Below, one piece after another: positions 39,999-63,865 of a stretch of 64,000 bases of DNA. Numbering within the stretch: position 1 is the first letter of the stretch; each line of letters opens with the position of its first letter. Made by a program: the position numbers and the translations under genes. Source of the stretch: a phage; sequence record PV874203.1. One strand, given 5' to 3'. Below the pieces are notes generated by a model. That model saw only the letters and a list, made by a program, of their open reading frames with translations. It ran no database searches and had not been told where the DNA came from.

Positions 39999-40208
39999 TT
40001 AACTGAAGATACGCAAGGCCACATCGTGATAGATATGACCGGGGACTTTGTGCTGTTCTATTTTCAAACAGCGTTTACAGACACGAGATACACGAGATTC
40101 TTTTCTCTCGACCGGAGTGTCTTTAGCGTGAGTAATATGTAAGTTTTCAGTGATCACCCACTCATGTTTACATCCAGAATCTTCGGGCTTTTTCTTACGA
40201 AAGAACAT
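39999..40208 (-). CDS. Hypothetical Cys-containing protein
   Basis: 69-aa ORF with CKHEW ... CKRC pattern. Confidence 0.4.
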   Translation of the reverse strand: MFFRKKKPEDSGCKHEWVITENLHITHAKDTPVERKESRVSRVCKRCLKIEQHKVPGHIYHDVALRIFS

Positions 40209-54954: not shown

Positions 54955-57198
54955 ATGGCTAAGCAAAAATATAGTGAAGAGGTGTTGGACGAGTTACGTG
55001 TTGACCTTCAACGTCGTTTTAATTACGCTCAAGGTTACGTTGACATGGCTGTTAAGGGCTATGCTCGTGAAGCTTGGGAATATTTCTATGGTAACTTACC
55101 TGCACCAGTAACTGCTGGCAGCTCTAGTTGGGTAGATCGTACTGTTTGGGAATCTGTTAACGGTACACTGCAAGATATTATTAACGTATTCTGTTCTGGT
55201 GATGAAGCGGTTACTTTCGTAGCTGACAACCAACAGGATTCTGATGCTGCTGATGTAGCAACTAAATTAGTTAACCAAATTCTTCTGCGTGACAATCCGG
55301 GATACAACATTATCTCTTCTGCTGCACAAGAATGTCTGGTTACTCGTAACTCTTTTATCAAGTATTATTGGGATGAACAAACTTCTACTCAAACTGAAGA
55401 AGCTGAAGGTGTACCACCGGAAGCGTTGGCTGCATATGTTCAGGGATTAGAAGCTGGTGGACTCAAGAATCTGGAAATCTTCACTGAAGAAAATGAAGAC
55501 GGTACAGTAGATGTTAAAGTTACTTACGAACAAACTGTTAAACGTGTGAAAGTTGAATATGTTCCTTCAGAGCAAATCTTTGTTGATGAACATGCTACCT
55601 CTTTTGCAGATGCACAATATTTCTGCCATCGTGTACGTCGTTCTAAAGAAGATCTGGTTGCTATGGGCTTCCCTAAAGATGAGATTGAAGCATTCAACGA
55701 CTGGACAGACACGATGGATACCACTCAATCTACAGTTGCTTGGTCTCGTACTGACTGGCGTCAGGACATTGATGCTGATATTGGTGTCGACACTGAAGAC
55801 ATCTCTTCTATGGTTTGGGTTTATGAGCACTACATCCGTACTGGTGTTCTAGATAAGAATAAAGAGTCTAAACTCTATCAGGTTATTCAAGCTGGTGAGC
55901 ATATACTTCACACTGAAGAAGTAACTCACATTCCGTTTGTAACCTTCTGTCCATATCCGATTCCGGGTTCCTTCTATGGTCAATCTGTTTATGACATTAC
56001 GAAAGATATTCAGGATTTACGCACCGCGCTAGTTCGTGGTTACATTGATAACGTCAACAATGCTAACTATGGTCGATACAAAGCTCTTGTTGGTGCATAC
56101 GATCGTCGCTCTCTGCTTGATAACCGTCCCGGTGGAGTGGTTGAAATGGAACGTCAGGACGCTATTGACCTGTTCCCATACCATAACCTACCTCAAGGTA
56201 TTGACGGCCTCCTAGGCATGTCTGAGGAGCTTAAAGAGACACGTACTGGTGTAACTAAACTTGGCATGGGTATCAACCCTGATGTGTTTAAGAATGATAA
56301 CGCTTATGCAACCGTAGGCTTGATGATGAATGCTGCACAGAACCGTCTCCGTATGGTATGTCGTAACATTGCTCACAACGGTATGGTTGAATTGATGCGT
56401 GGTATTTACAACCTTATCAGAGAAAATGGTGAAGTTCCTATTGAGGTACAAACCCCTCGTGGTATGATTCAGGTTAATCCGAAACAATTACCAGCTCGTC
56501 ATAATCTTCAAGTTGTTGTAGCTATCTCTCCTAATGAGAAAGCAGAACGTGCACAGAAACTGATTAGCTTGAAACAGCTGATTGCAGCAGATGCACAGTT
56601 AGCACCTCTCTTCGGTTTGGAGCAAGACCGTTACATGACTGCACAGATCTTTGAGTTGATGGGTATTAAGGACACTCATAAATACCTTCTGCCTCTGGAA
56701 CAGTATCAGCCTCCGCAGCCTTCTCCGATGGAAATCCTTCAGCTTGAGATGACTAAAGCACAGGTTGAGAACGTACAGGCTTCTTCTCAGAAGATGATTG
56801 CTGATGCATTCGACCAGCGTGAACGTACTACATTCGAACAGCAGAAAGCTGCGGATGAGTTAAGTCTGCGTCAGGAAGAGTTGCAGTTTAAGCAAGAAAA
56901 TGCAGCAGATGCTATGACTCTGGAAAACCGTAAAGAAGATAACAATGCTACTCTGGAACAAGCTAAGCACAAGTTAGCTCTTATGCAACAGCAGGTCCGT
57001 CAGTATGAATCTGTACTGAAAGAATTGCAGATGGTTATGGAACATCAGGTTGACCAAGAGAAGATTGTTCATCAATCTCGTGTTCAGGATAAAACTTTGG
57101 AACTCCAAAAGAAAGAAGCTAATGTAACTAAGAAAGAGCAACAAGCTTCTCTCAAAGATTCACGGATTCCAGGCAAACGTCTTGGAAGTAAAAAGTAA
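54955..57198 (+). CDS. Portal protein (putative)
   Basis: 747-aa protein directly after the terminase and before scaffold and capsid; assignment by synteny and size. Confidence 0.6.
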   Translation: MAKQKYSEEVLDELRVDLQRRFNYAQGYVDMAVKGYAREAWEYFYGNLPAPVTAGSSSWVDRTVWESVNGTLQDIINVFCSGDEAVTFVADNQQDSDAADVATKLVNQILLRDNPGYNIISSAAQECLVTRNSFIKYYWDEQTSTQTEEAEGVPPEALAAYVQGLEAGGLKNLEIFTEENEDGTVDVKVTYEQTVKRVKVEYVPSEQIFVDEHATSFADAQYFCHRVRRSKEDLVAMGFPKDEIEAFNDWTDTMDTTQSTVAWSRTDWRQDIDADIGVDTEDISSMVWVYEHYIRTGVLDKNKESKLYQVIQAGEHILHTEEVTHIPFVTFCPYPIPGSFYGQSVYDITKDIQDLRTALVRGYIDNVNNANYGRYKALVGAYDRRSLLDNRPGGVVEMERQDAIDLFPYHNLPQGIDGLLGMSEELKETRTGVTKLGMGINPDVFKNDNAYATVGLMMNAAQNRLRMVCRNIAHNGMVELMRGIYNLIRENGEVPIEVQTPRGMIQVNPKQLPARHNLQVVVAISPNEKAERAQKLISLKQLIAADAQLAPLFGLEQDRYMTAQIFELMGIKDTHKYLLPLEQYQPPQPSPMEILQLEMTKAQVENVQASSQKMIADAFDQRERTTFEQQKAADELSLRQEELQFKQENAADAMTLENRKEDNNATLEQAKHKLALMQQQVRQYESVLKELQMVMEHQVDQEKIVHQSRVQDKTLELQKKEANVTKKEQQASLKDSRIPGKRLGSKK

Positions 57199-57207
57199 GG
57201 ACGTCGA

Positions 57208-57444
57208 ATGAACATTAGGCATCAATTCAATAAAGAGCACGCCGCCGCTTTGGCGGCTCTCAATCTTAACGGCAGTCTTGACGCAGCATTAGAGGCATTG
57301 AAAGAAAGACTCATGACAGAGATAGTTCAAACTGAACCTCATGAGAATAAGAAACGCGAAGATTGTTATCAAAAGTATAAAATGGTGGGTAGCTTAAAAG
57401 AGGTCATAAAAGCTGCTATCAATAGTGCAGGAGATGTTTCATAA
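57208..57444 (+). CDS. Hypothetical protein
   Basis: 78-aa ORF between portal and scaffold. Confidence 0.45.
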   Translation: MNIRHQFNKEHAAALAALNLNGSLDAALEALKERLMTEIVQTEPHENKKREDCYQKYKMVGSLKEVIKAAINSAGDVS

Positions 57445-58529
57445 TGCCACAAGATAATTATATTGACCCGAACGATTTTAAATCTTTCCTCCAACTGGAT
57501 GACCTGAAAGGTTCTTTTAAAGAAGAGCTTGGTCGATTAGAATCTGAACAAGAACCAGAAGTGGACATTGACGATGAGTTCCCGGAACAAACCGGTGACG
57601 AATTCGACTTTGATACCGACCTTCTCGGTGAAAGCGATGTGCTTAAGTTCGAAGATGAAGATGGTTGGGAAGATCATGATGAGGAAGGCGAAGTCGAAGA
57701 AGATGAGGACGACTCTGATGAAGGTGCTGAAGACACTGAAGTAGAAGAGGAAGACTCAAGCGATGCAGGGTATGAAGATGATTCTGCTGACGGTGATGGT
57801 GAAGTCTTTGATGTAGACTACGAAACCGTTATCACCCTTCCTGATGGACGTGAGATGACTATTGAAGAACTCTCCAATGGCTATCTTACTGGTGCTGATA
57901 TGACAGAACGAGAAACAACTCTTCAGCGTCATATGGAAGCATTTGAGGAACGTGTAGTAGGTTTGAAGGATGTATTAGAATTAGCGTCTTTAGAAGCAGA
58001 CCGAGTAATTGAAGATTACAACGGATTTGATTGGGACAAGCTTGCAGTAGAAGATCCTCAAGCATATGTTGAAAACAAACGTTTCCTAGAGAAGTACACA
58101 GCTCGTCGTAACCAGCTTGAACAGGCTCAGGTCCGTATTAAGCAGGAAGCAGCAGCTAAAGAGCAGGAAGCTTTCCAAGCCAAGAGCATTGAATGTGTTA
58201 ATATTCTGAAACGTGAGATTCCAAATTGGGATGAAAACTTATATCAAAACTTAATGCAATACGCAATTGACTTAGGTGCTACTGAAGAAGAAGTATTGAA
58301 GGAAAACCGTCCGTCTATTTTCCTAGCTCTCCACAAAGCATACCAATTTGATAAAGGTAAGCAACAGGTGATGGCTAAGATTAAACGTCCCGGTGCTCCA
58401 CGCAAGGTTGTGAAGTCTGATGCTGCAAAGTCTCGTACTTCCAATAAGCCAGACAACGCTAAGGTTGCCAAGGCATTCGCAGAGGGTCGCGTTAGTCACG
58501 AAGACGCATTCAAATTCCTCGTAGATTAA
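57444..58529 (+). CDS. Scaffolding protein (putative)
   Basis: Highly acidic N-terminal half, helical C-terminal half, immediately upstream of the capsid gene. Confidence 0.55.
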   Translation: MPQDNYIDPNDFKSFLQLDDLKGSFKEELGRLESEQEPEVDIDDEFPEQTGDEFDFDTDLLGESDVLKFEDEDGWEDHDEEGEVEEDEDDSDEGAEDTEVEEEDSSDAGYEDDSADGDGEVFDVDYETVITLPDGREMTIEELSNGYLTGADMTERETTLQRHMEAFEERVVGLKDVLELASLEADRVIEDYNGFDWDKLAVEDPQAYVENKRFLEKYTARRNQLEQAQVRIKQEAAAKEQEAFQAKSIECVNILKREIPNWDENLYQNLMQYAIDLGATEEEVLKENRPSIFLALHKAYQFDKGKQQVMAKIKRPGAPRKVVKSDAAKSRTSNKPDNAKVAKAFAEGRVSHEDAFKFLVD

Positions 58530-58570: not shown

Positions 58571-59629
58571 ATGGCTAATCCAACTTTATTTGTATCGTAT
58601 GACCAGAATGGTAAAAAACTTTCTTTTGCTAACTGGATTTCTGTTCTGTCCCCTCAGGATACCCCGTTCGTATCCATGACCGGTAAAGAGTCTATCAACC
58701 AGACTATCTTTAGCTGGCAGACCGATGCACTGGCAAGCGTTGACGCTAATAACGCACACATTGAAGGTTCTCGTGCGGTTGATGGTGAAATGCAACCTAC
58801 CGTAATCAAATCCAACGTTACTCAGATTCTGCGTAAGGTTGTTAAAGTTTCTGATACCGCTAACACCACCGCTAACTACGGTCGTGGTCGTGAACTGATG
58901 TACCAGCTGGAGAAGAAAGGTAAAGAGATCAAACGCGACCTCGAGAAAATTCTTCTGTCTGGTCAGGCTCGTACCGACGTTCTGGCTGACCAGTACCTGA
59001 CTAACTCTGCCGCTGATCCGACTCAGATTGGTAAGAACGACACCCATGCAGCTCGTAAGACTGGTGCATTCCAGTTCCTGTGTGCTCACGGCGGTCTGGC
59101 TGGTGGTGTTGTTGACAAAACCAAGAATGGTCCTGCTGATCCGGATACCGGTGCAGTAACTGTTAAGGTTGCACAGAACGCATCTAACCCGGCTACTAAC
59201 ATCGGCTTTGATGAAGCAGATATCTTTGATATGACTCTGCAACTGTATACCGCTGGTTCTGAAGCAGATATCATCATGATTAACCCGGCTCATGCTAAGA
59301 TCTTCGCTGGTCTGCAAGAAAATACTCAGGGTTCACGTAAGCGTATCTTTGAGAACACCAAGCAGTTCATCTACGAAGTTAACAGCATCACTGACCCGCT
59401 GGGCCAGAGCTACAAAATCATCGTTAACCGTTGGATGCCTACCGATGCAGTTTACTTCTTCCGTAGCGCTGACTGGACCCAGATGGTTCTGCGTGCTCCG
59501 AAACGTACTGAACTGGCGAAAGATGGTTCTTACGAGAAGTGGATGATTGAGATGGAAGTTGGTCTGCGTCACCGCAACCCGTATGCTTCCGGCGTTCTGT
59601 TCACTGCTGCGGGAAAGGCGGCGGCGTAA
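58571..59629 (+). CDS. Major capsid protein (putative), zero-frame product
   Basis: 352-aa protein after scaffold, followed by a terminator; assignment by synteny. Confidence 0.6.
   Translation: MANPTLFVSYDQNGKKLSFANWISVLSPQDTPFVSMTGKESINQTIFSWQTDALASVDANNAHIEGSRAVDGEMQPTVIKSNVTQILRKVVKVSDTANTTANYGRGRELMYQLEKKGKEIKRDLEKILLSGQARTDVLADQYLTNSAADPTQIGKNDTHAARKTGAFQFLCAHGGLAGGVVDKTKNGPADPDTGAVTVKVAQNASNPATNIGFDEADIFDMTLQLYTAGSEADIIMINPAHAKIFAGLQENTQGSRKRIFENTKQFIYEVNSITDPLGQSYKIIVNRWMPTDAVYFFRSADWTQMVLRAPKRTELAKDGSYEKWMIEMEVGLRHRNPYASGVLFTAAGKAAA
59611..59617 (+). other. Candidate -1 programmed ribosomal frameshift slippery heptamer G_GGA_AAG
   Basis: GGGAAAG lies 10 nt before the capsid stop; the -1 frame is open from here to 60156. 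Confidence 0.5.
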
Positions 59630-60156
59630 CAGTAGACAGTGTAACTGTTAGCCCTGCGTCTTTATCAAGTCTAGAGACAGGGGCTACTCGGCAGTTCACT
59701 GCAAGCGCGGAGAAAAGTGATGGTTCTACCGAAACAACTGGCTTTACTTGGTCAGTGACAGGAGGTGGTACTATCACTCAGTCGGGTTTGTATACTGCTC
59801 CGAGTGCGTCTCAATCCACTGATGTATCCATTACTGCAACTTTAGAAGGTGTTTCTGGTACAGCAACCATTTCTGAAATTGTTGATCCTACTCCTACTAT
59901 TGTAGCTAAAGGTCCAATTACTGGTAAGGTAGGCGGTTCTACTACAGCTTTCACTACAATGTTTACCGTTACCAATTCAGCTGCTTCTAACTATACTTTC
60001 GTAGTAACTCCTCCGGAAGCTGGTTCTGTAAGTGCTGCCGGTCTGCTGACCTTGGCTGATGCTGCTTCTGGTGCTGTAAGTGTTAAAGCCACCCACTCTA
60101 CGGTTTCGAGTGTTACGGCTACTTGTGAATTTACAGGTGTAACTCCAAAAGAGTAA
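59617..60156 (+). CDS. Capsid C-terminal extension in the -1 frame: Ig-like (BIG2-type) domains, probable decoration
   Basis: -1 frame reads GKGGGVTVDSVTVSPASLSSLETGATRQFTASAEKSDGS...TWSVTGGGTITQSG...; pattern resembles bacterial Ig-like domain 2. Track lists only 59755..60156. Confidence 0.5.
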   Translation, partial: GGGVTVDSVTVSPASLSSLETGATRQFTASAEKSDGSTETTGFTWSVTGGGTITQSGLYTAPSASQSTDVSITATLEGVSGTATISEIVDPTPTIVAKGPITGKVGGSTTAFTTMFTVTNSAASNYTFVVTPPEAGSVSAAGLLTLADAASGAVSVKATHSTVSSVTATCEFTGVTPKE

Positions 60157-60165
60157 AACTATAAA

Positions 60166-60190
60166 GGCTGCCTTCGGGTGGCCTTTTCTT
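60166..60190 (+). terminator. Rho-independent terminator after the capsid region
   Basis: Hairpin GGCTGCC-TTCG-GGTGGCC followed by TTTTCTT. Confidence 0.55.
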
Positions 60191-60217
60191 GTTTTAAGAC
60201 CTATACAAGCTAGTGTG

Positions 60218-60259: not shown

Positions 60260-61012
60260 ATGGCAATGCCAGATGTTCAATACCCCATCAATACCTATGG
60301 GTGGCTAAAGAAGGCCGTGGCCCTCTGGGCAGATAGGGACGATGATGAATTTGTTAATCAGATTCCAAACTTTATTAACTTTGCAGAGAAAGAGATTTAT
60401 CGTAACTTACGTATCCCTCCTCTGGAAAAAGAAGTGTATTTAGATATTAAAGATGGAGTAGCTTATATTCCTCCTGATTACTTAGAAGCTCAATGGATGA
60501 TGAGAGCCAAAGATGGCACAATCTTCCAAGTAACATCTCCTGAAGAGATTAGCTATCGTAGACAGCATGGAACAATTAGCCCATCTCATTGGAATAACCA
60601 ACCTGTTAACTTTGCTCGTTTCGGTAGTCGTTTCATTTTCTATCCTAGCATCGAAGCAGACACTCCGTATTATCCGGATGATGGAAGTCCTTTGATTCCA
60701 GCAGAAAACTCAGTAATTCTTAGTTATTATGCAGACCCACCGGAATTCCATGAAGATACAGATACTAGTGCTATTCTTACTATTGCACCAGAACTTCTTC
60801 TGTATTTCACTCTACGTCATGCTTGCTTGTTTGTTCAAGATGATAATGGAGTTCAGAAATGGTCTGCATTAGGAAAATCTATCCTTGATGAAATGGTAGA
60901 GCAGAATAAGAAACAAGAGTACTCAGGTTCACCTATCGCAATTCCGAATAACATGACTCGACTTCAGAGCAGCTTGCCTGATATTTATGGTATTCGTACT
61001 TCTCGTGTATAA
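60260..61012 (+). CDS. Putative virion structural protein
   Basis: 250-aa ORF between capsid and tail fibre genes with own promoter-like motif and strong RBS. Confidence 0.5.
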   Translation: MAMPDVQYPINTYGWLKKAVALWADRDDDEFVNQIPNFINFAEKEIYRNLRIPPLEKEVYLDIKDGVAYIPPDYLEAQWMMRAKDGTIFQVTSPEEISYRRQHGTISPSHWNNQPVNFARFGSRFIFYPSIEADTPYYPDDGSPLIPAENSVILSYYADPPEFHEDTDTSAILTIAPELLLYFTLRHACLFVQDDNGVQKWSALGKSILDEMVEQNKKQEYSGSPIAIPNNMTRLQSSLPDIYGIRTSRV

Positions 61013-61021
61013 GGAGATAAT

Positions 61022-63865
61022 ATGATCGTTTATAATAACCAAGCACCTGATGCAGTGAATAACGTTGGGCAGTTTGGTGCTACGGAAGGCTCTATCGGAG
61101 CTTATAAGCAAGCAGCAGAATACGCAGCTGACTCCAAATATTGGGCACTGCTAGCAGAGTCTAAGTTTGGTACAATTGATGACTTGATCGCTGAAGTAGA
61201 ACGTCTGTATCAACAAGGTGTTCTGATGAAGCAGGATATTGAAGATCTTAAGCAGGATTTTAAAGATCAAGATGCTCGTTTGATGACCCTGATTGCTCAA
61301 ACTAACGCAGCGGTCTCTGATGCTAATAACGCTGTTGCTCTTATTAACCAGAAACTTATTGAAGTCCAGAAACAGCTTGATGTTCTGTTGGGAATGTCTG
61401 TTGATGTAACTACCCTTCCTCCGGGAACTCCAGCTACTGGCTCTTTTAATCCGAGCACTGGTGTAATCTCTTTAGGTATTCCAGAAGGGGATCCCGGAAA
61501 GGATGGCTCTGTTAAGGATTTGGATACAGCACCTACTGGTGTTCCAGAGTTGGGCGACTTAGGTTTCTATGTTGACAAAGATGATAACACTGTTCACAAA
61601 ACCACTCTAGAGAGTATTGCTAACTTAATCCCGTCTGTTCGTTCTGTTTCTGTTAACGGCGGCCCGGCTCTTGATGGAGAGGTTGCTCTAACAATCAACA
61701 AAGAGACAGTAGGTTTAGGAAATGTTCTGAACGTCGCTCAGTACAGTCGTCAAGAGATTAATGACAAATTTGACAAGACTACCAAGACATACCAATCAAA
61801 AGCAGAAGCTGATGCTGATGCTCAGTATCGTCAAGTAGGTGAGAAAGTTTTAGTTTGGGAAGCTACTAAGTATGAATTTTATACTGTTGCTGCTAACAAA
61901 ACATTAACTCCTGTTAAGACTGAAGGTAGAATCCTTACTGTTAACTCTCGCTCTCCAGACTCAAGTGGTAACATTGATATTACCATTCCAACAGGAAACC
62001 CATCTCTGTATCTTGGTGAGATGGTGATGTTCCCTTACGACCCAACTAAGAATATCTCATATCCGGGAGTTCTCCCTGCTGATGGTCGTCTGGTATCAAA
62101 AGAGTCTGCTCTAGATTTAGGCCCATCACTTGTTAGTGGTCAGCTTCCTGTGGTCTCTGAAACAGAATGGCAGGCTGGTGCTCGTCAGTATTTCTCTTGG
62201 GGTAAGTTAGCAGATGGGGTTACTGATGCAGATTCTACTAATTTTATTAGCATTCGACTTCCCGACTGGACTGGTGGTGAGGCTATCCGCTCTCCTGACT
62301 CAGGTAAGGATTCCAATTACAAAGGGCGTGTTCAATCTCAGATTCCTTACATTGTAACAGTAAATGGAAAAGCTCCTGATGACGCTAATGGTAACGTAGT
62401 CCTCACAGCTGATACTGTTGGGGCTTTTAGTGTATCTAATAACTTGTCTGAGATTACGAACACAAGTCAAGCTATTAAGAACATAGGACTTGCTGATTAT
62501 GGTATTGGTAGCCCTTCATTAACTGTTAAAAGAAACTTTGATTGGCAAACTTATGAGTTCAAGAATACAGAGAAAATGTTAGTGGATGCGGAAACATGGC
62601 TAAACCCTCCAGTAATGATTAATGAGGGGTGGGTATGGGTTGAGGTTATTGGGGTAACTGTCAATACGTCTACTCAGAACCTTTCTGCTGAGGTTCGGCT
62701 GGTTAAATCAACAGGGAGTGATACTACATATAAAACCTACTCGGTTCGTATTCTTGGTCCGGTAGGCAGTCGCACATTTCTAGCACGGGAAGAGTTATCT
62801 TCTGCTATCCCGGTAACTCTTGCACAGGGTGGTACAGGCGCAAAAACTGCTGATGGTGCTCGACTGGCACTAATTGCAGCTAAAAGTGGGGATAATTATG
62901 ATATCACATCCCTCCACAATCTCACTACAGCGTTATCAATAGGACAGGGTGGGACAGGAGCTACTACAGATGCGGCAGCACGTGTTAACCTAAAAGTTGA
63001 TAAACTTGTCCAAAGTTCAACTGACACTAAACTTTTAGATGGTTCAGGAGACCACACATTCTTTATTACAGATACTGATTGGGGGTATTTCAATAATTCT
63101 GATTCTTCTAGAATTGCCCTACCAGTAATCAGTGGTGGTACAGGAGGGAAAACCCCAGCAGAAGGTTCTGAGAAACTAGGGGCAATGCATTGTTGGTATG
63201 GTCAATCAACATTCTATGGTAGTGAGGATTTGCCAACCGGCATTGGATTCTATAGCCAAGACACTTCTCCATTCCCAGGAGGTAACGGAGCACCTTATTC
63301 TTATGCAGAAATAATGACCATATCGGAAGGTGGGCGTGGAGGTAACTGGTCTCAAATAGGGTTCTCTACTATCACGAACCAAGCCCCTCGTTATAGACAA
63401 AGAACTAACGACCCTGCTTTGATCACAAACTGGAGAGATTTCTTAGTAAGAGATTTAAATACGACTGTAGATGTTAATGGTTTTGTTAAGATTGCATCAC
63501 CTATAGTCAAACTAAAATCTGATGGCTCTTCTGAAGTTAATGACCAAGCCCAAGGAGTAACAACCGAAAGACTAGATGTTGGTGTTTACAAGATATCCGG
63601 AACTTTAGGGTTTAACTCGGATGCATCTTGGGGCGGTATTGAAGGTGGTTTTTCTATTCCACAAAACTCCAACGGACTACCTCTTCTTTGGGTTGATTAT
63701 GAAGTTGATGAAAAAGGTGACATTACTTTGAAGACTTATCATCGAACCCATGAGGGAGTTCCTTCTTTTGCTAGTAATGTAATAGAGGGTGTAGTAGATG
63801 GAGAGCCTATTGATATCCCTGTTGGAAGATGGATTGACCTTCGTGTTGAAATGCCTTCTAAATGA
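61022..63865 (+). CDS. Tail fibre protein
   Basis: 947 aa with three copies of the fibre repeat (LAQGGTGAKTADGARLALIAA, IGQGGTGATTDAAARVNLKV, ISGGTGGKTPAEGSEKLGA) and a Gly-rich beta-type C-terminal region. Confidence 0.7.
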   Translation: MIVYNNQAPDAVNNVGQFGATEGSIGAYKQAAEYAADSKYWALLAESKFGTIDDLIAEVERLYQQGVLMKQDIEDLKQDFKDQDARLMTLIAQTNAAVSDANNAVALINQKLIEVQKQLDVLLGMSVDVTTLPPGTPATGSFNPSTGVISLGIPEGDPGKDGSVKDLDTAPTGVPELGDLGFYVDKDDNTVHKTTLESIANLIPSVRSVSVNGGPALDGEVALTINKETVGLGNVLNVAQYSRQEINDKFDKTTKTYQSKAEADADAQYRQVGEKVLVWEATKYEFYTVAANKTLTPVKTEGRILTVNSRSPDSSGNIDITIPTGNPSLYLGEMVMFPYDPTKNISYPGVLPADGRLVSKESALDLGPSLVSGQLPVVSETEWQAGARQYFSWGKLADGVTDADSTNFISIRLPDWTGGEAIRSPDSGKDSNYKGRVQSQIPYIVTVNGKAPDDANGNVVLTADTVGAFSVSNNLSEITNTSQAIKNIGLADYGIGSPSLTVKRNFDWQTYEFKNTEKMLVDAETWLNPPVMINEGWVWVEVIGVTVNTSTQNLSAEVRLVKSTGSDTTYKTYSVRILGPVGSRTFLAREELSSAIPVTLAQGGTGAKTADGARLALIAAKSGDNYDITSLHNLTTALSIGQGGTGATTDAAARVNLKVDKLVQSSTDTKLLDGSGDHTFFITDTDWGYFNNSDSSRIALPVISGGTGGKTPAEGSEKLGAMHCWYGQSTFYGSEDLPTGIGFYSQDTSPFPGGNGAPYSYAEIMTISEGGRGGNWSQIGFSTITNQAPRYRQRTNDPALITNWRDFLVRDLNTTVDVNGFVKIASPIVKLKSDGSSEVNDQAQGVTTERLDVGVYKISGTLGFNSDASWGGIEGGFSIPQNSNGLPLLWVDYEVDEKGDITLKTYHRTHEGVPSFASNVIEGVVDGEPIDIPVGRWIDLRVEMPSK

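Follow-up and report, generated by a model that had tools for sequence, protein, structure and literature searches.

The 64,000-nt window analysed here (sequence record PV874203.1) comes from a Kuravirus-type E. coli phage, and the features of the locus described below lie on its plus strand. The head module runs in the order portal, small ORF, scaffold, capsid, adaptor and tail fibre, with ORFs starting at 54955, 57208, 57444, 58571, 60260 (matched by Pfam SU10_adaptor) and 61022. An identical gene order was found in ECBP2, YF01 and SU7. The major capsid protein gene (58571..59629, 0 frame) encodes 352 aa with a calculated mass of 38.6 kDa. Its product matches Pfam SU10_MCP (PF17236) with E=9.3e-77 and 258.8 bits, compared to a cut-off of 24.1, and is covered over residues 1-352 by the SU10 major head protein (PDB 7z45, E=8.9e-231). 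The profile score above the curated cut-off and the full-length 7z45 match identify the head module as SU10-type, Kuravirus-like. T7 and T3 capsid chains were absent among the PDB sequence matches of the capsid protein at E<=0.001. The 3’ end of the capsid ORF reads TTC ACT GCT GCG GGA AAG GCG GCG GCG TAA, in which the TAA (59627..59629) is the 0-frame stop that ends the short capsid form. An intrinsic terminator with a 10-bp stem, a tetraloop and a T-run (60163..60196) is located not 3’ of this stop codon but 3’ of a second open frame, described below, and a terminator is annotated at the equivalent place in the SU10 record.

A slippery heptamer, G_GGA_AAG (59611..59617, Gly348-Lys349), precedes the capsid stop codon with a spacer of 9 nt (59618-59626). 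It stands in X_XXY_YYZ register with the capsid ORF, the codons being GCG GGA AAG, as an earlier note on this DNA had claimed for a GGGAAAG near the capsid stop. GGGAAAG occurs 8 times in the 64 kb on both strands, compared to about 8 copies expected for a 7-mer by our rough estimate. The occurrence of the heptamer by itself is at chance level; its combination with a long -1 frame is not. The 55 long ORFs in the window contain 38 in-register X_XXY_YYZ heptamers, of which the site at 59611 opens 179 codons in the -1 frame, compared to 33 for the runner-up. Other in-register heptamers, such as A_AAA_AAG in the minus-strand ORF 28422-30114, were dismissed with at most 33 codons open in the -1 frame. 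In E. coli, G_GGA_AAG has been described as highly shift-prone (PMC5009743).

The -1 frame has no stop codon between 59551 and a TAA at 60154-60156. Counted from 59617, the extension (59617..60156) has 179 sense codons before this TAA, in agreement with the roughly 180 codons reported previously. A fusion of residues 1-349 of the capsid protein to these 179 aa would have 528 aa and a calculated mass of 55.9 kDa, which replaces the earlier estimate of about 57 kDa. The -1 reading begins with a Gly-rich linker, GGGV (59617..59628), that crosses the end of the capsid ORF and is seen both in this sequence and in relatives.

Alignments of relatives were used to assess how the two frames are maintained. 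G_GGA_AAG shows no variation across 11 Kuravirus-like sequences and Proteus phage J3S, and no relative carries a synonymous replacement of GGA or AAG. A 0-frame TAA is retained in all relatives, 9 or 12 nt 3’ of the heptamer. Setting the SU10 record aside, each of the 11 other Kuravirus-like sequences examined has an uninterrupted -1 frame of 178-543 codons. Between the heptamer and the stop codon the relatives vary in both readings: the linker occurs as GGGV, GGSV, GSGGV or GSSGV in the -1 frame, and the tail as AAA, AGA, VAA, VVA, AVAA or VAAA in the 0 frame. On the 5’ side of the heptamer, every variable column (6/6) falls on a third position of the 0 frame. Within 59630-59754, a stretch that has no start codon here, 40 columns vary, and 24 of these are third positions in the -1 reading. 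This pattern in the alignment indicates that coding constraint changes from the 0 frame to the -1 frame at the heptamer.

Domain searches and structure prediction divide the extension into Ig-like domain 1, of Big_2 type (59632..59889, extension residues ~6-91; Pfam and AlphaFold2), and Ig-like domain 2 (59890..60153, residues ~92-179), a β-sandwich modelled by AlphaFold2 with a pLDDT of ~97. Pfam Big_2 (PF02368) gave a weak match to residues 6-83 (E=3.8e-4, 20.8 bits). Scored singly, domain 1 gave 19.6 bits and domain 2 gave 14.9 bits (E=0.026), and neither the whole extension nor either domain reached the Big_2 gathering cut-off of 22.8 bits. Orthologous extensions do exceed this cut-off, with 25.0 bits in phiEco32 and 36.9 bits in YF01. 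PHROG 13745, an ‘Ig domain containing protein’ family that was built from truncated ORFs and begins at residue 33 of the actual extension, matches with E=2.5e-81. Because a phmmer search of the extension against PDB sequences returned marginal matches only (E=0.029), a comparison of folds was needed. AlphaFold reached a pLDDT of 41 from the single sequence and gave a usable model only from a 24-sequence alignment; in that model (pLDDT 96.6) there are two β-sandwich domains, the first strand starting at residue 6. The top Foldseek match was the LigA variable region (8gyr; E=8.9e-11, TM 0.54, 24% identity), which we take to be made of tandem Big_2 domains. Two non-phage Big_2 proteins (P0027 and P0028) align with the extension from ‘SVTVSPAS’. 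The model, confirmed as to fold by AlphaFold and Foldseek, is that of two tandem bacterial Ig-like domains. The BIG2-type assignment made in the earlier note is upheld by the fold and the LigA match, whereas the Pfam Big_2 score remains under the cut-off.

In the -1 frame, the earliest codon that could serve as a start is a GTG (59755..59757) at extension residue 47, inside domain 1. If the Ig ORF were an independent gene with a translation start of its own, here this GTG, the product would be a free 133-aa decoration protein binding the capsid. Most GenBank records do annotate such a separate gene, with an ‘Ig domain containing protein’ in the ECBP2, NJ01, MN05, SU7, ShigP1 and SU10 records, and in the SU10 cryo-EM paper gp10 is considered as a minor capsid protein that may be separate (PMC9509320). 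However, we regard a separate gene as very unlikely. The Ig fold of the AlphaFold2 model starts 41 residues before the GTG, and initiation at that codon would delete about half of domain 1. No Shine-Dalgarno sequence is present in the 20 nt 5’ of it (CAACTGGCTTTACTTGGTCA), and the GTG is probably not a real start. The 138 nt 5’ of 59755 carry the -1-frame coding pattern, and the peptide GGGVTVDSVTVSPASLSSLETGATR is encoded 5’ of every -1-frame start codon. The annotated starts also differ between relatives and therefore look like gene-caller artefacts: the phiEco32-type start is a GTG at the position equivalent to 59641, the basis of an annotated 170-aa ORF, and is a GTA in PV874203.1; the NJ01 type is an internal ATG; the ECBP2 record begins at the codon equivalent to GTG 59755. 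Finally, mass spectrometry detected capsid forms of 38.5 and 55.4 kDa in SU10 (PMC4281155), and the larger form argues against a free decoration protein.

The -1 ORF might instead be unexpressed here, a decaying remnant, with the heptamer kept merely for coding Gly-Lys. This is marginally less probable again than a separate gene. In the deposited SU10 sequence, the -1 frame ends after 11 codons owing to a 1-nt indel (also PMC9965538), yet the phage still grows, and the extended capsid form appeared neither as density nor as a gel band in the SU10 cryo-EM study (PMC9509320). Decay does not agree with the intact frame of the other Kuravirus-like sequences, where variation is concentrated on third codon positions, with the very high confidence at which AlphaFold2 folds the extension into two complete domains, or with the constancy of GGA and AAG. 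The least credible explanation, to which we give almost no weight, is that the frame change reflects a sequencing or assembly error, or transcriptional rather than ribosomal slippage. A one-base error would look identical, and the SU10 record may hold one nearby. However, the two-frame layout with its 0-frame TAA recurs across independently sequenced genomes, and the short form is the abundant product in SU10 structures, in which the 7z45 chain has 352 residues. The AAA run is also far shorter than the homopolymer runs that cause RNA polymerase slippage.

RNA structures around the site were also analysed. A candidate 3’ stimulatory hairpin (59618..59657) has a 7-bp stem formed by UAACAGU (59627-59633) and ACUGUUA (59644-59650), with a dG of -18.1 kcal/mol and z=-2.55. 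The equivalent hairpin is strong in ECBP2 (-18.6, z=-4.1) and weak in NJ01 (z=-0.76); across relatives the loop varies and the core stem does not, and compensatory changes are absent. Just 3’ of 59617, where the earlier note had suggested a search for a stimulatory structure, there is thus a strong hairpin here and in ECBP2; given the weakness in NJ01 and the lack of covariation, it may or may not act as a stimulator. No Shine-Dalgarno-like sequence was found in 59590-59610, 5’ of the heptamer, and neither of the two kinds of element sought (a 3’ structure at a distance of 5-9 nt, or a Shine-Dalgarno-like sequence on the 5’ side) was clearly identified. Stimulatory elements are not obligatory for G_GGA_AAG in E. 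coli. A second hairpin (59658..59678) pairs GUCUU (59658-59662) with GAGAC (59674-59678). It is paired in 8/8 distinct sequences, and two of its pairs co-vary across lineages (U-A/G-C/A-U and U-G/G-C), but it starts 40 nt 3’ of the heptamer and is therefore too far away for a classical stimulator. A helix predicted by RNAalifold at 59641-59699 was rejected as a stimulator on similar grounds, as it begins 23 nt past the heptamer, and only its apical hairpin was kept. The stem-loop enclosing the slippery site that was proposed in the SU10 paper (CUGCUGC...GCGGCGG) folds here with -11.3 kcal/mol and z=-0.98, like shuffled sequences, and one of its pairs is broken in ECBP2 and KBNP1711. It was rejected as a stimulator because a ribosome decoding the heptamer would already have melted it.

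Every computational test that was run favours the central proposal of the earlier note, a -1 frameshift by which Ig-like domains are joined to the capsid protein. The signal, the frame layout, their conservation, the switch in constraint and the fold of the extension are features of the locus itself, and both virion forms are known from the literature on relatives. Frameshifting is preferred because the heptamer is conserved, coding constraint switches at it, no start codon precedes domain 1 and more distant relatives carry the two parts fused in frame. A minority of capsid subunits very probably receive Ig-like domains through -1 programmed ribosomal frameshifting in the capsid gene. Most ribosomes would read GCG GGA AAG GCG GCG GCG TAA and terminate there, giving the capsid protein of 352 aa and 38.6 kDa. 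In a minority, tRNA-Gly on GGA and tRNA-Lys on AAG would slip back one base to GGG and AAA, and translation would continue in the -1 frame through the GGG linker and the two Big_2-type domains to the TAA at 60154. The resulting 528-aa, 55.9-kDa fusion would co-assemble into the prolate head with its Ig-like domains on the surface. Capsid Ig domains are usually proposed to adhere weakly to carbohydrates on cell surfaces or in the environment, and this may be their function here as well. If the site behaves as the identical heptamer does in lambda G/GT, where frameshift efficiency is ~4% (PMC3296357), an efficiency of a few percent would be expected.

This frameshift is already known and is ordinary, having been published for close relatives. 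In phiEco32, SU10, YF01 and other Kuravirus-like phages (Gordonclarkvirinae), the gene family (SU10_MCP), the heptamer GGGAAAG and the -1 direction are the same as here, and the heptamer likewise lies 9-12 nt before the stop codon (PMC4281155; PMC9965538). SU10 and PV874203.1 share an identical 21-nt context, CTGCTGCGGGAAAGGCGGCGG. The two-domain Ig extensions are orthologous, that of PV874203.1 being 83% identical to the MN05 extension, while in its linker and at the 3’ end of domain 2 it follows the ECBP2/NJ01 type and not the phiEco32 type; the YF01 extension, at 543 codons, is longer. According to the SU10 and Privateer papers, phiEco32 also has the frameshift, with proteomic support for both capsid forms (PMC4281155; PMC7881722), and the YF01 paper describes frameshifting for the whole Kuravirus-like group (PMC9965538). 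The region was examined in ~14 of 123 matching phage records. A frameshift join is annotated in the GenBank record of YF01, which is the only one of the 11 Kuravirus-like records inspected to carry it. In the remaining records the extension is either missing from the annotation or appears as a truncated ‘Ig domain containing protein’ or as a second ‘major head protein’. For general science the case matters little, as another instance of a published recoding event. The correct annotation model does give the PV874203.1 phage a 528-aa minor capsid protein. This is relevant to users of Kuraviruses in therapy or display because the extension marks a naturally tolerated, modular site for C-terminal fusions on the capsid.

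A wider reading, that recoding is older and more varied than published (ancestral to the SU10_MCP clade, employing G_GUA_AAG in Aeromonas phages, and set in level by 3’ RNA structure in Kuraviruses), is tentative, and as a whole we think it rather doubtful. Taken separately, recoding may go back to the ancestor of the entire SU10_MCP clade of prolate podophages, and the level of Kuravirus frameshifting may be set by the stem at 59627-59650 together with the hairpin at 59658-59678, both of which are previously undescribed. In Aeromonas phages (Lahexavirus), such as 4_4572, G_GUA_AAG is a probable non-canonical frameshift site with a T7-like first part, G_GU. None of the Aeromonas phage records inspected annotates a frameshift there, and a literature search found no paper discussing a capsid frameshift in Lahexavirus. 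A separate observation concerns L015, which has A_AAA_AAG 10 nt before the capsid stop and a 42-codon -1 ORF with no domain match.

Comparable arrangements are known outside the Kuravirus-like group. Proteus phage Privateer/J3S (Grimontviridae) has a homologous capsid gene (57% identity) with GGGAAAG likewise at its end, and the minor capsid protein of Privateer was detected in virions (PMC7881722). Unlike here, the TAA of J3S directly follows the heptamer, and its -1 extension (I-set and Big_2) is Ig-like but not orthologous. Cronobacter phage GAP52 and phage PKM.Lu.22.1 have a second capsid paralogue, encoded directly 3’ of the main capsid gene, in which SU10_MCP and Big_2 are fused in frame following gene duplication. 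The slippery heptamer and the open -1 frame are absent from these two phages, and thus the same final architecture exists without recoding. The lambda gpG/gpGT system uses the identical heptamer, GGGAAAG, and the same E. coli tRNAs (PMC3296357; PMC9965538), but it operates in a tail assembly chaperone gene whose product is no component of the virion (PMC3296357). In T3 and T7 10A/10B, ribosomes that shift to the -1 frame near the 3’ end of the major capsid gene produce a longer subunit, which is a minor component of the virion (PMC5009743; PMC9965538). The likeness to T7 gp10B suggested in the earlier note is right in kind, but T3 resembles this case more closely: the T3 extension is Ig-like, whereas that of T7 is not, and the T7 shift site, whose first part is G_GU, is a different one (PMC5009743). 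The T3/T7 capsid family is unrelated to SU10_MCP at the sequence level. PV874203.1 has the 10A/10B type of genomic layout, and incorporation into virions is known from its relatives; the resemblance is an analogy of mechanism and not homology.

The window comes from the genome of a Kuravirus-type coliphage. Its positions 40000–64000 are ~93% identical to Escherichia phages DE5, EK5, TH06 and others over 81–87% of the length. In order, the capsid locus contains the portal gene (54955–57198), a small ORF, the scaffold gene (57444–58529), the major capsid gene (58571–59629, 352 aa), the adaptor gene (60260–61012, Pfam SU10_adaptor) and the tail fibre gene (61022–63865). The capsid protein matches Pfam SU10_MCP (E=9.3e-77) and aligns over its full length with the major head protein of SU10, for which a structure has been solved (PDB 7z45, E=8.9e-231); its nearest relative is that of MN05 (99.1% aa). 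An intrinsic terminator (60163–60196) is located 3’ of the -1-frame extension described below, not 3’ of the capsid stop codon.

The 3’ end of the capsid ORF reads GCG GGA AAG GCG GCG GCG TAA, with the heptamer G_GGA_AAG (59611–59617) in the X_XXY_YYZ register ahead of the 0-frame TAA (59627–59629). An open -1 frame spans 59551–60156 and holds 179 sense codons counted from 59617. The site is confirmed as the earlier note had placed and described it. The heptamer by itself is not unusual: it occurs eight times on both strands of the window, where our own 7-mer estimate gives a chance expectation of roughly 8. Its combination with a long open -1 frame is unusual. Among 38 in-register X_XXY_YYZ heptamers in 55 long ORFs of the window, the capsid heptamer opens 179 -1 codons and the runner-up 33.

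GGGAAAG is invariant in the window, ECBP2, KBNP1711, NJ01, SDYTW1, ShigP1, phiEco32, YF01, MN05, SU7 and one IMG/VR contig. In these sequences the 0-frame TAA always follows at a spacing of 9 or 12 nt, and the -1 frames opened are 178–180 codons long (543 in YF01). The recurrence of this layout in independent genomes contradicts a sequencing error or transcriptional slippage as the origin of the frame change, as does the A run, which is short (three A). In the 51 nt 5’ of the heptamer, all variable alignment columns (6/6) fall on 0-frame third positions. Past the capsid stop and ahead of any start codon (59630–59754), third positions in the -1 frame account for 24 of the 40 variable columns. 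Within the overlap, a Gly/Ser linker persists in the -1 frame across relatives (GGGV, GGSV, GSGGV, GSSGV), and the 0-frame tail varies freely (AAA, AGA, VAA, VVA, AVAA, VAAA).

The Ig-like, Big_2-type character claimed for the extension holds. Pfam Big_2 matches extension residues 6–83 weakly (20.8 bits, below the cut-off of 22.8). That cut-off is exceeded by the orthologues from phiEco32 (25.0 bits) and YF01 (36.9 bits), and the extension also has a match to PHROG 13745, ‘Ig domain containing protein’ (E=2.5e-81). An AlphaFold model of the extension, made from a 24-sequence alignment, has a mean pLDDT of 96.6 and two beta-sandwich domains, the first strand running from residue 6. Its top PDB match is the variable region of LigA (8gyr, E=8.9e-11), a protein composed of tandem Big_2 domains; S-layer, invasin and further Ig-like proteins come next. 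The first ATG/GTG/TTG in the -1 frame is the GTG at 59755, extension residue 47, which lies within domain 1 and is not preceded by a Shine-Dalgarno sequence. A product started separately at this codon would therefore be short of about half its first domain. Most records annotate the Ig ORF as a separately initiated gene. This reading is contradicted by the missing start ahead of domain 1, by the truncated fold, by annotated starts that are inconsistent among relatives, and by coding constraint upstream of the start. The extension is a genuine Ig-like module that folds and lacks its own start. Together with the conserved heptamer and the frame-switched coding constraint, this supports the proposed -1 frameshift fusing the capsid to Ig-like domains, and the window phage is very likely to produce the predicted fusion.

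The extension is also mosaic and modular. Although the capsid protein in the window is closest to that of MN05, the 3’ end of domain 2 (60066–60156, alignment columns about 190–220) is of the ECBP2/NJ01 type, and in most Kuravirus records only 90–93% of the query aligned. The number of Ig modules in relatives is two, three or more, with called ORFs of 231–252 aa and 543 codons in YF01. Third-codon-position GC is 0.48 in the capsid gene (58571–59626) and 0.27 in the extension (59617–60153), a contrast that we read as an abundant capsid part that is codon-optimised and a rarely translated extension that is not.

Tandem -1 slippage on G_GGA_AAG is the best-supported mechanism. The tRNA-Gly would move from GGA to GGG and the tRNA-Lys from AAG to AAA; besides the 38.6-kDa capsid protein, this predicts a fusion of 528 aa and 55.9 kDa (residues 1–349 plus 179). 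In E. coli this heptamer has been described as highly shift-prone (PMC5009743). It is also the lambda G/GT site, where ~4% (PMC3296357) or ~3.5% (PMC9965538) of ribosomes shift; for the window phage, shift efficiency is a value that we infer. Two hairpins are treated only as candidate stimulators. The first (59618–59657), directly 3’ of the site, has a dG of -18.1 kcal/mol (z=-2.55 in the window); its equivalent is found in ECBP2 (-18.6, z=-4.1) and is weak in NJ01 (z=-0.76) and YF01 (z=-1.37). Its 7-bp core is invariant and its loop variable, with no compensatory changes among the aligned relatives. The second (59658–59678) begins 40 nt past the heptamer, within the Ig coding region, and has two pairs at which the changes are compensatory (U-A/G-C/A-U and U-G/G-C), with approximately four independent lineages sampled. 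A synonymous Ser codon change in this hairpin is coupled to a non-synonymous E/Q/P/L change. The stem-loop proposed in the SU10 paper, which would enclose the heptamer, was indistinguishable from shuffled sequence (z=-0.98).

The capsid frameshift is already known. For the major head gene of SU10, ‘a potential ribosomal slippage (GGGAAAG)’ has been reported that joins it to CDS10, which is Ig-like, ‘as in phage phiEco32’, and mass spectrometry detected 38.5- and 55.4-kDa forms (PMC4281155). The site published there, CTGCTGCGGGAAAGGCGGCGG (PMC4281155), is identical to window 59605–59625. The signal was also reported for Privateer, whose virions contain a minor capsid protein, and the same paper states that both capsid forms are seen in phiEco32 and SU10 (PMC7881722). 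Two capsid isoforms were described for YF01 ‘and other group phages’, with isoform sizes of ~500–550 aa in most members; a premature -1-frame stop was noted in SU10 alone (PMC9965538). This stop was confirmed in the SU10 record KM044272 (L024:1891–1960): owing to a 1-nt indel ~25 nt past the heptamer, the -1 frame ends after 11 codons, and the Ig ORF, now in the 0 frame, is preceded by two stops. The indel reflects a true loss or else an error in sequencing, and is at odds with the 55.4-kDa form (PMC4281155; PMC9965538). It may also be why SU10 cryo-EM revealed no extra density (PMC9509320). In all other relatives the frames are intact, which, with purifying selection, contradicts the notion that the extension is an unexpressed remnant.

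The practical value of the finding is in annotation. Among 11 Kuravirus-like records inspected, only the YF01 GenBank record annotates the joined CDS; in the others the extension appears as a truncated ‘Ig domain containing protein’ or as a second ‘major head protein’, or is given no product. The Ig entries in ECBP2, NJ01, MN05, SU7 and ShigP1 are gene-caller products that lack the N-terminus and whose starts disagree, and residue 33 of the true extension is where the PHROG 13745 profile sets in. The NJ01 RefSeq record lacks a capsid CDS and SDYTW1 lacks an Ig ORF.

More distant phages suggest that a capsid protein followed by Ig-like domains is made by several routes. In Proteus phage J3S (57% capsid protein identity), TAA immediately follows the same heptamer, and a 169-codon -1 extension holds I-set and Big_2 domains. 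Cronobacter phage GAP52 (L021:4029–5129) and phage PKM.Lu.22.1 (L022:4022–6358) have a second full-length SU10_MCP paralogue with in-frame Big_2 domain(s) immediately downstream of the main capsid gene, and no slippery site; they arrive at the same capsid-Ig product via gene duplication, not frameshifting. In a more distant capsid homologue (L015:4421–4555, IMGVR_UViG_3300033688_000038), A_AAA_AAG lies 10 nt before the stop and opens only 42 -1 codons, with no domain match.

In Aeromonas phages of the Lahexavirus lineage (L010–L013 and phage 4_4572), the capsid gene ends in CTG AAG GTA AAG GCG/CCC TAA, with no canonical heptamer. The -1 frame is open for 109–190 codons (L010:4412–4924; L011–L013; L020:3912–4190 in phage 4_4572, MK813943) and encodes a pair of Big_2 domains (119 bits) or else an Ig_3/I-set domain; in either case the domain starts within 4–8 residues of the putative shift point and ahead of any start codon. 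TGAAGGTAAAG, at the capsid gene end, is invariant in both module types. G_GUA_AAG is a plausible non-canonical shift site, at which a -1 frameshift probably takes place in these phages. The one Lahexavirus GenBank record inspected carries no such annotation, and our literature search found no paper on a G_GUA_AAG capsid frameshift in Lahexavirus-type phages.

The addition of C-terminal Ig-like domains to phage structural proteins by frameshifting has been reviewed as a general principle (PMC5009743). T7 gene 10 shares the G_GU first part of its site with the Lahexavirus G_GUA_AAG (PMC5009743). The comparison with T7 gp10B drawn in the earlier note is right in kind, but the T7 extension is not Ig-like; the T3 capsid protein is cited as an Ig-like frameshift case and is therefore the better parallel (PMC5009743).
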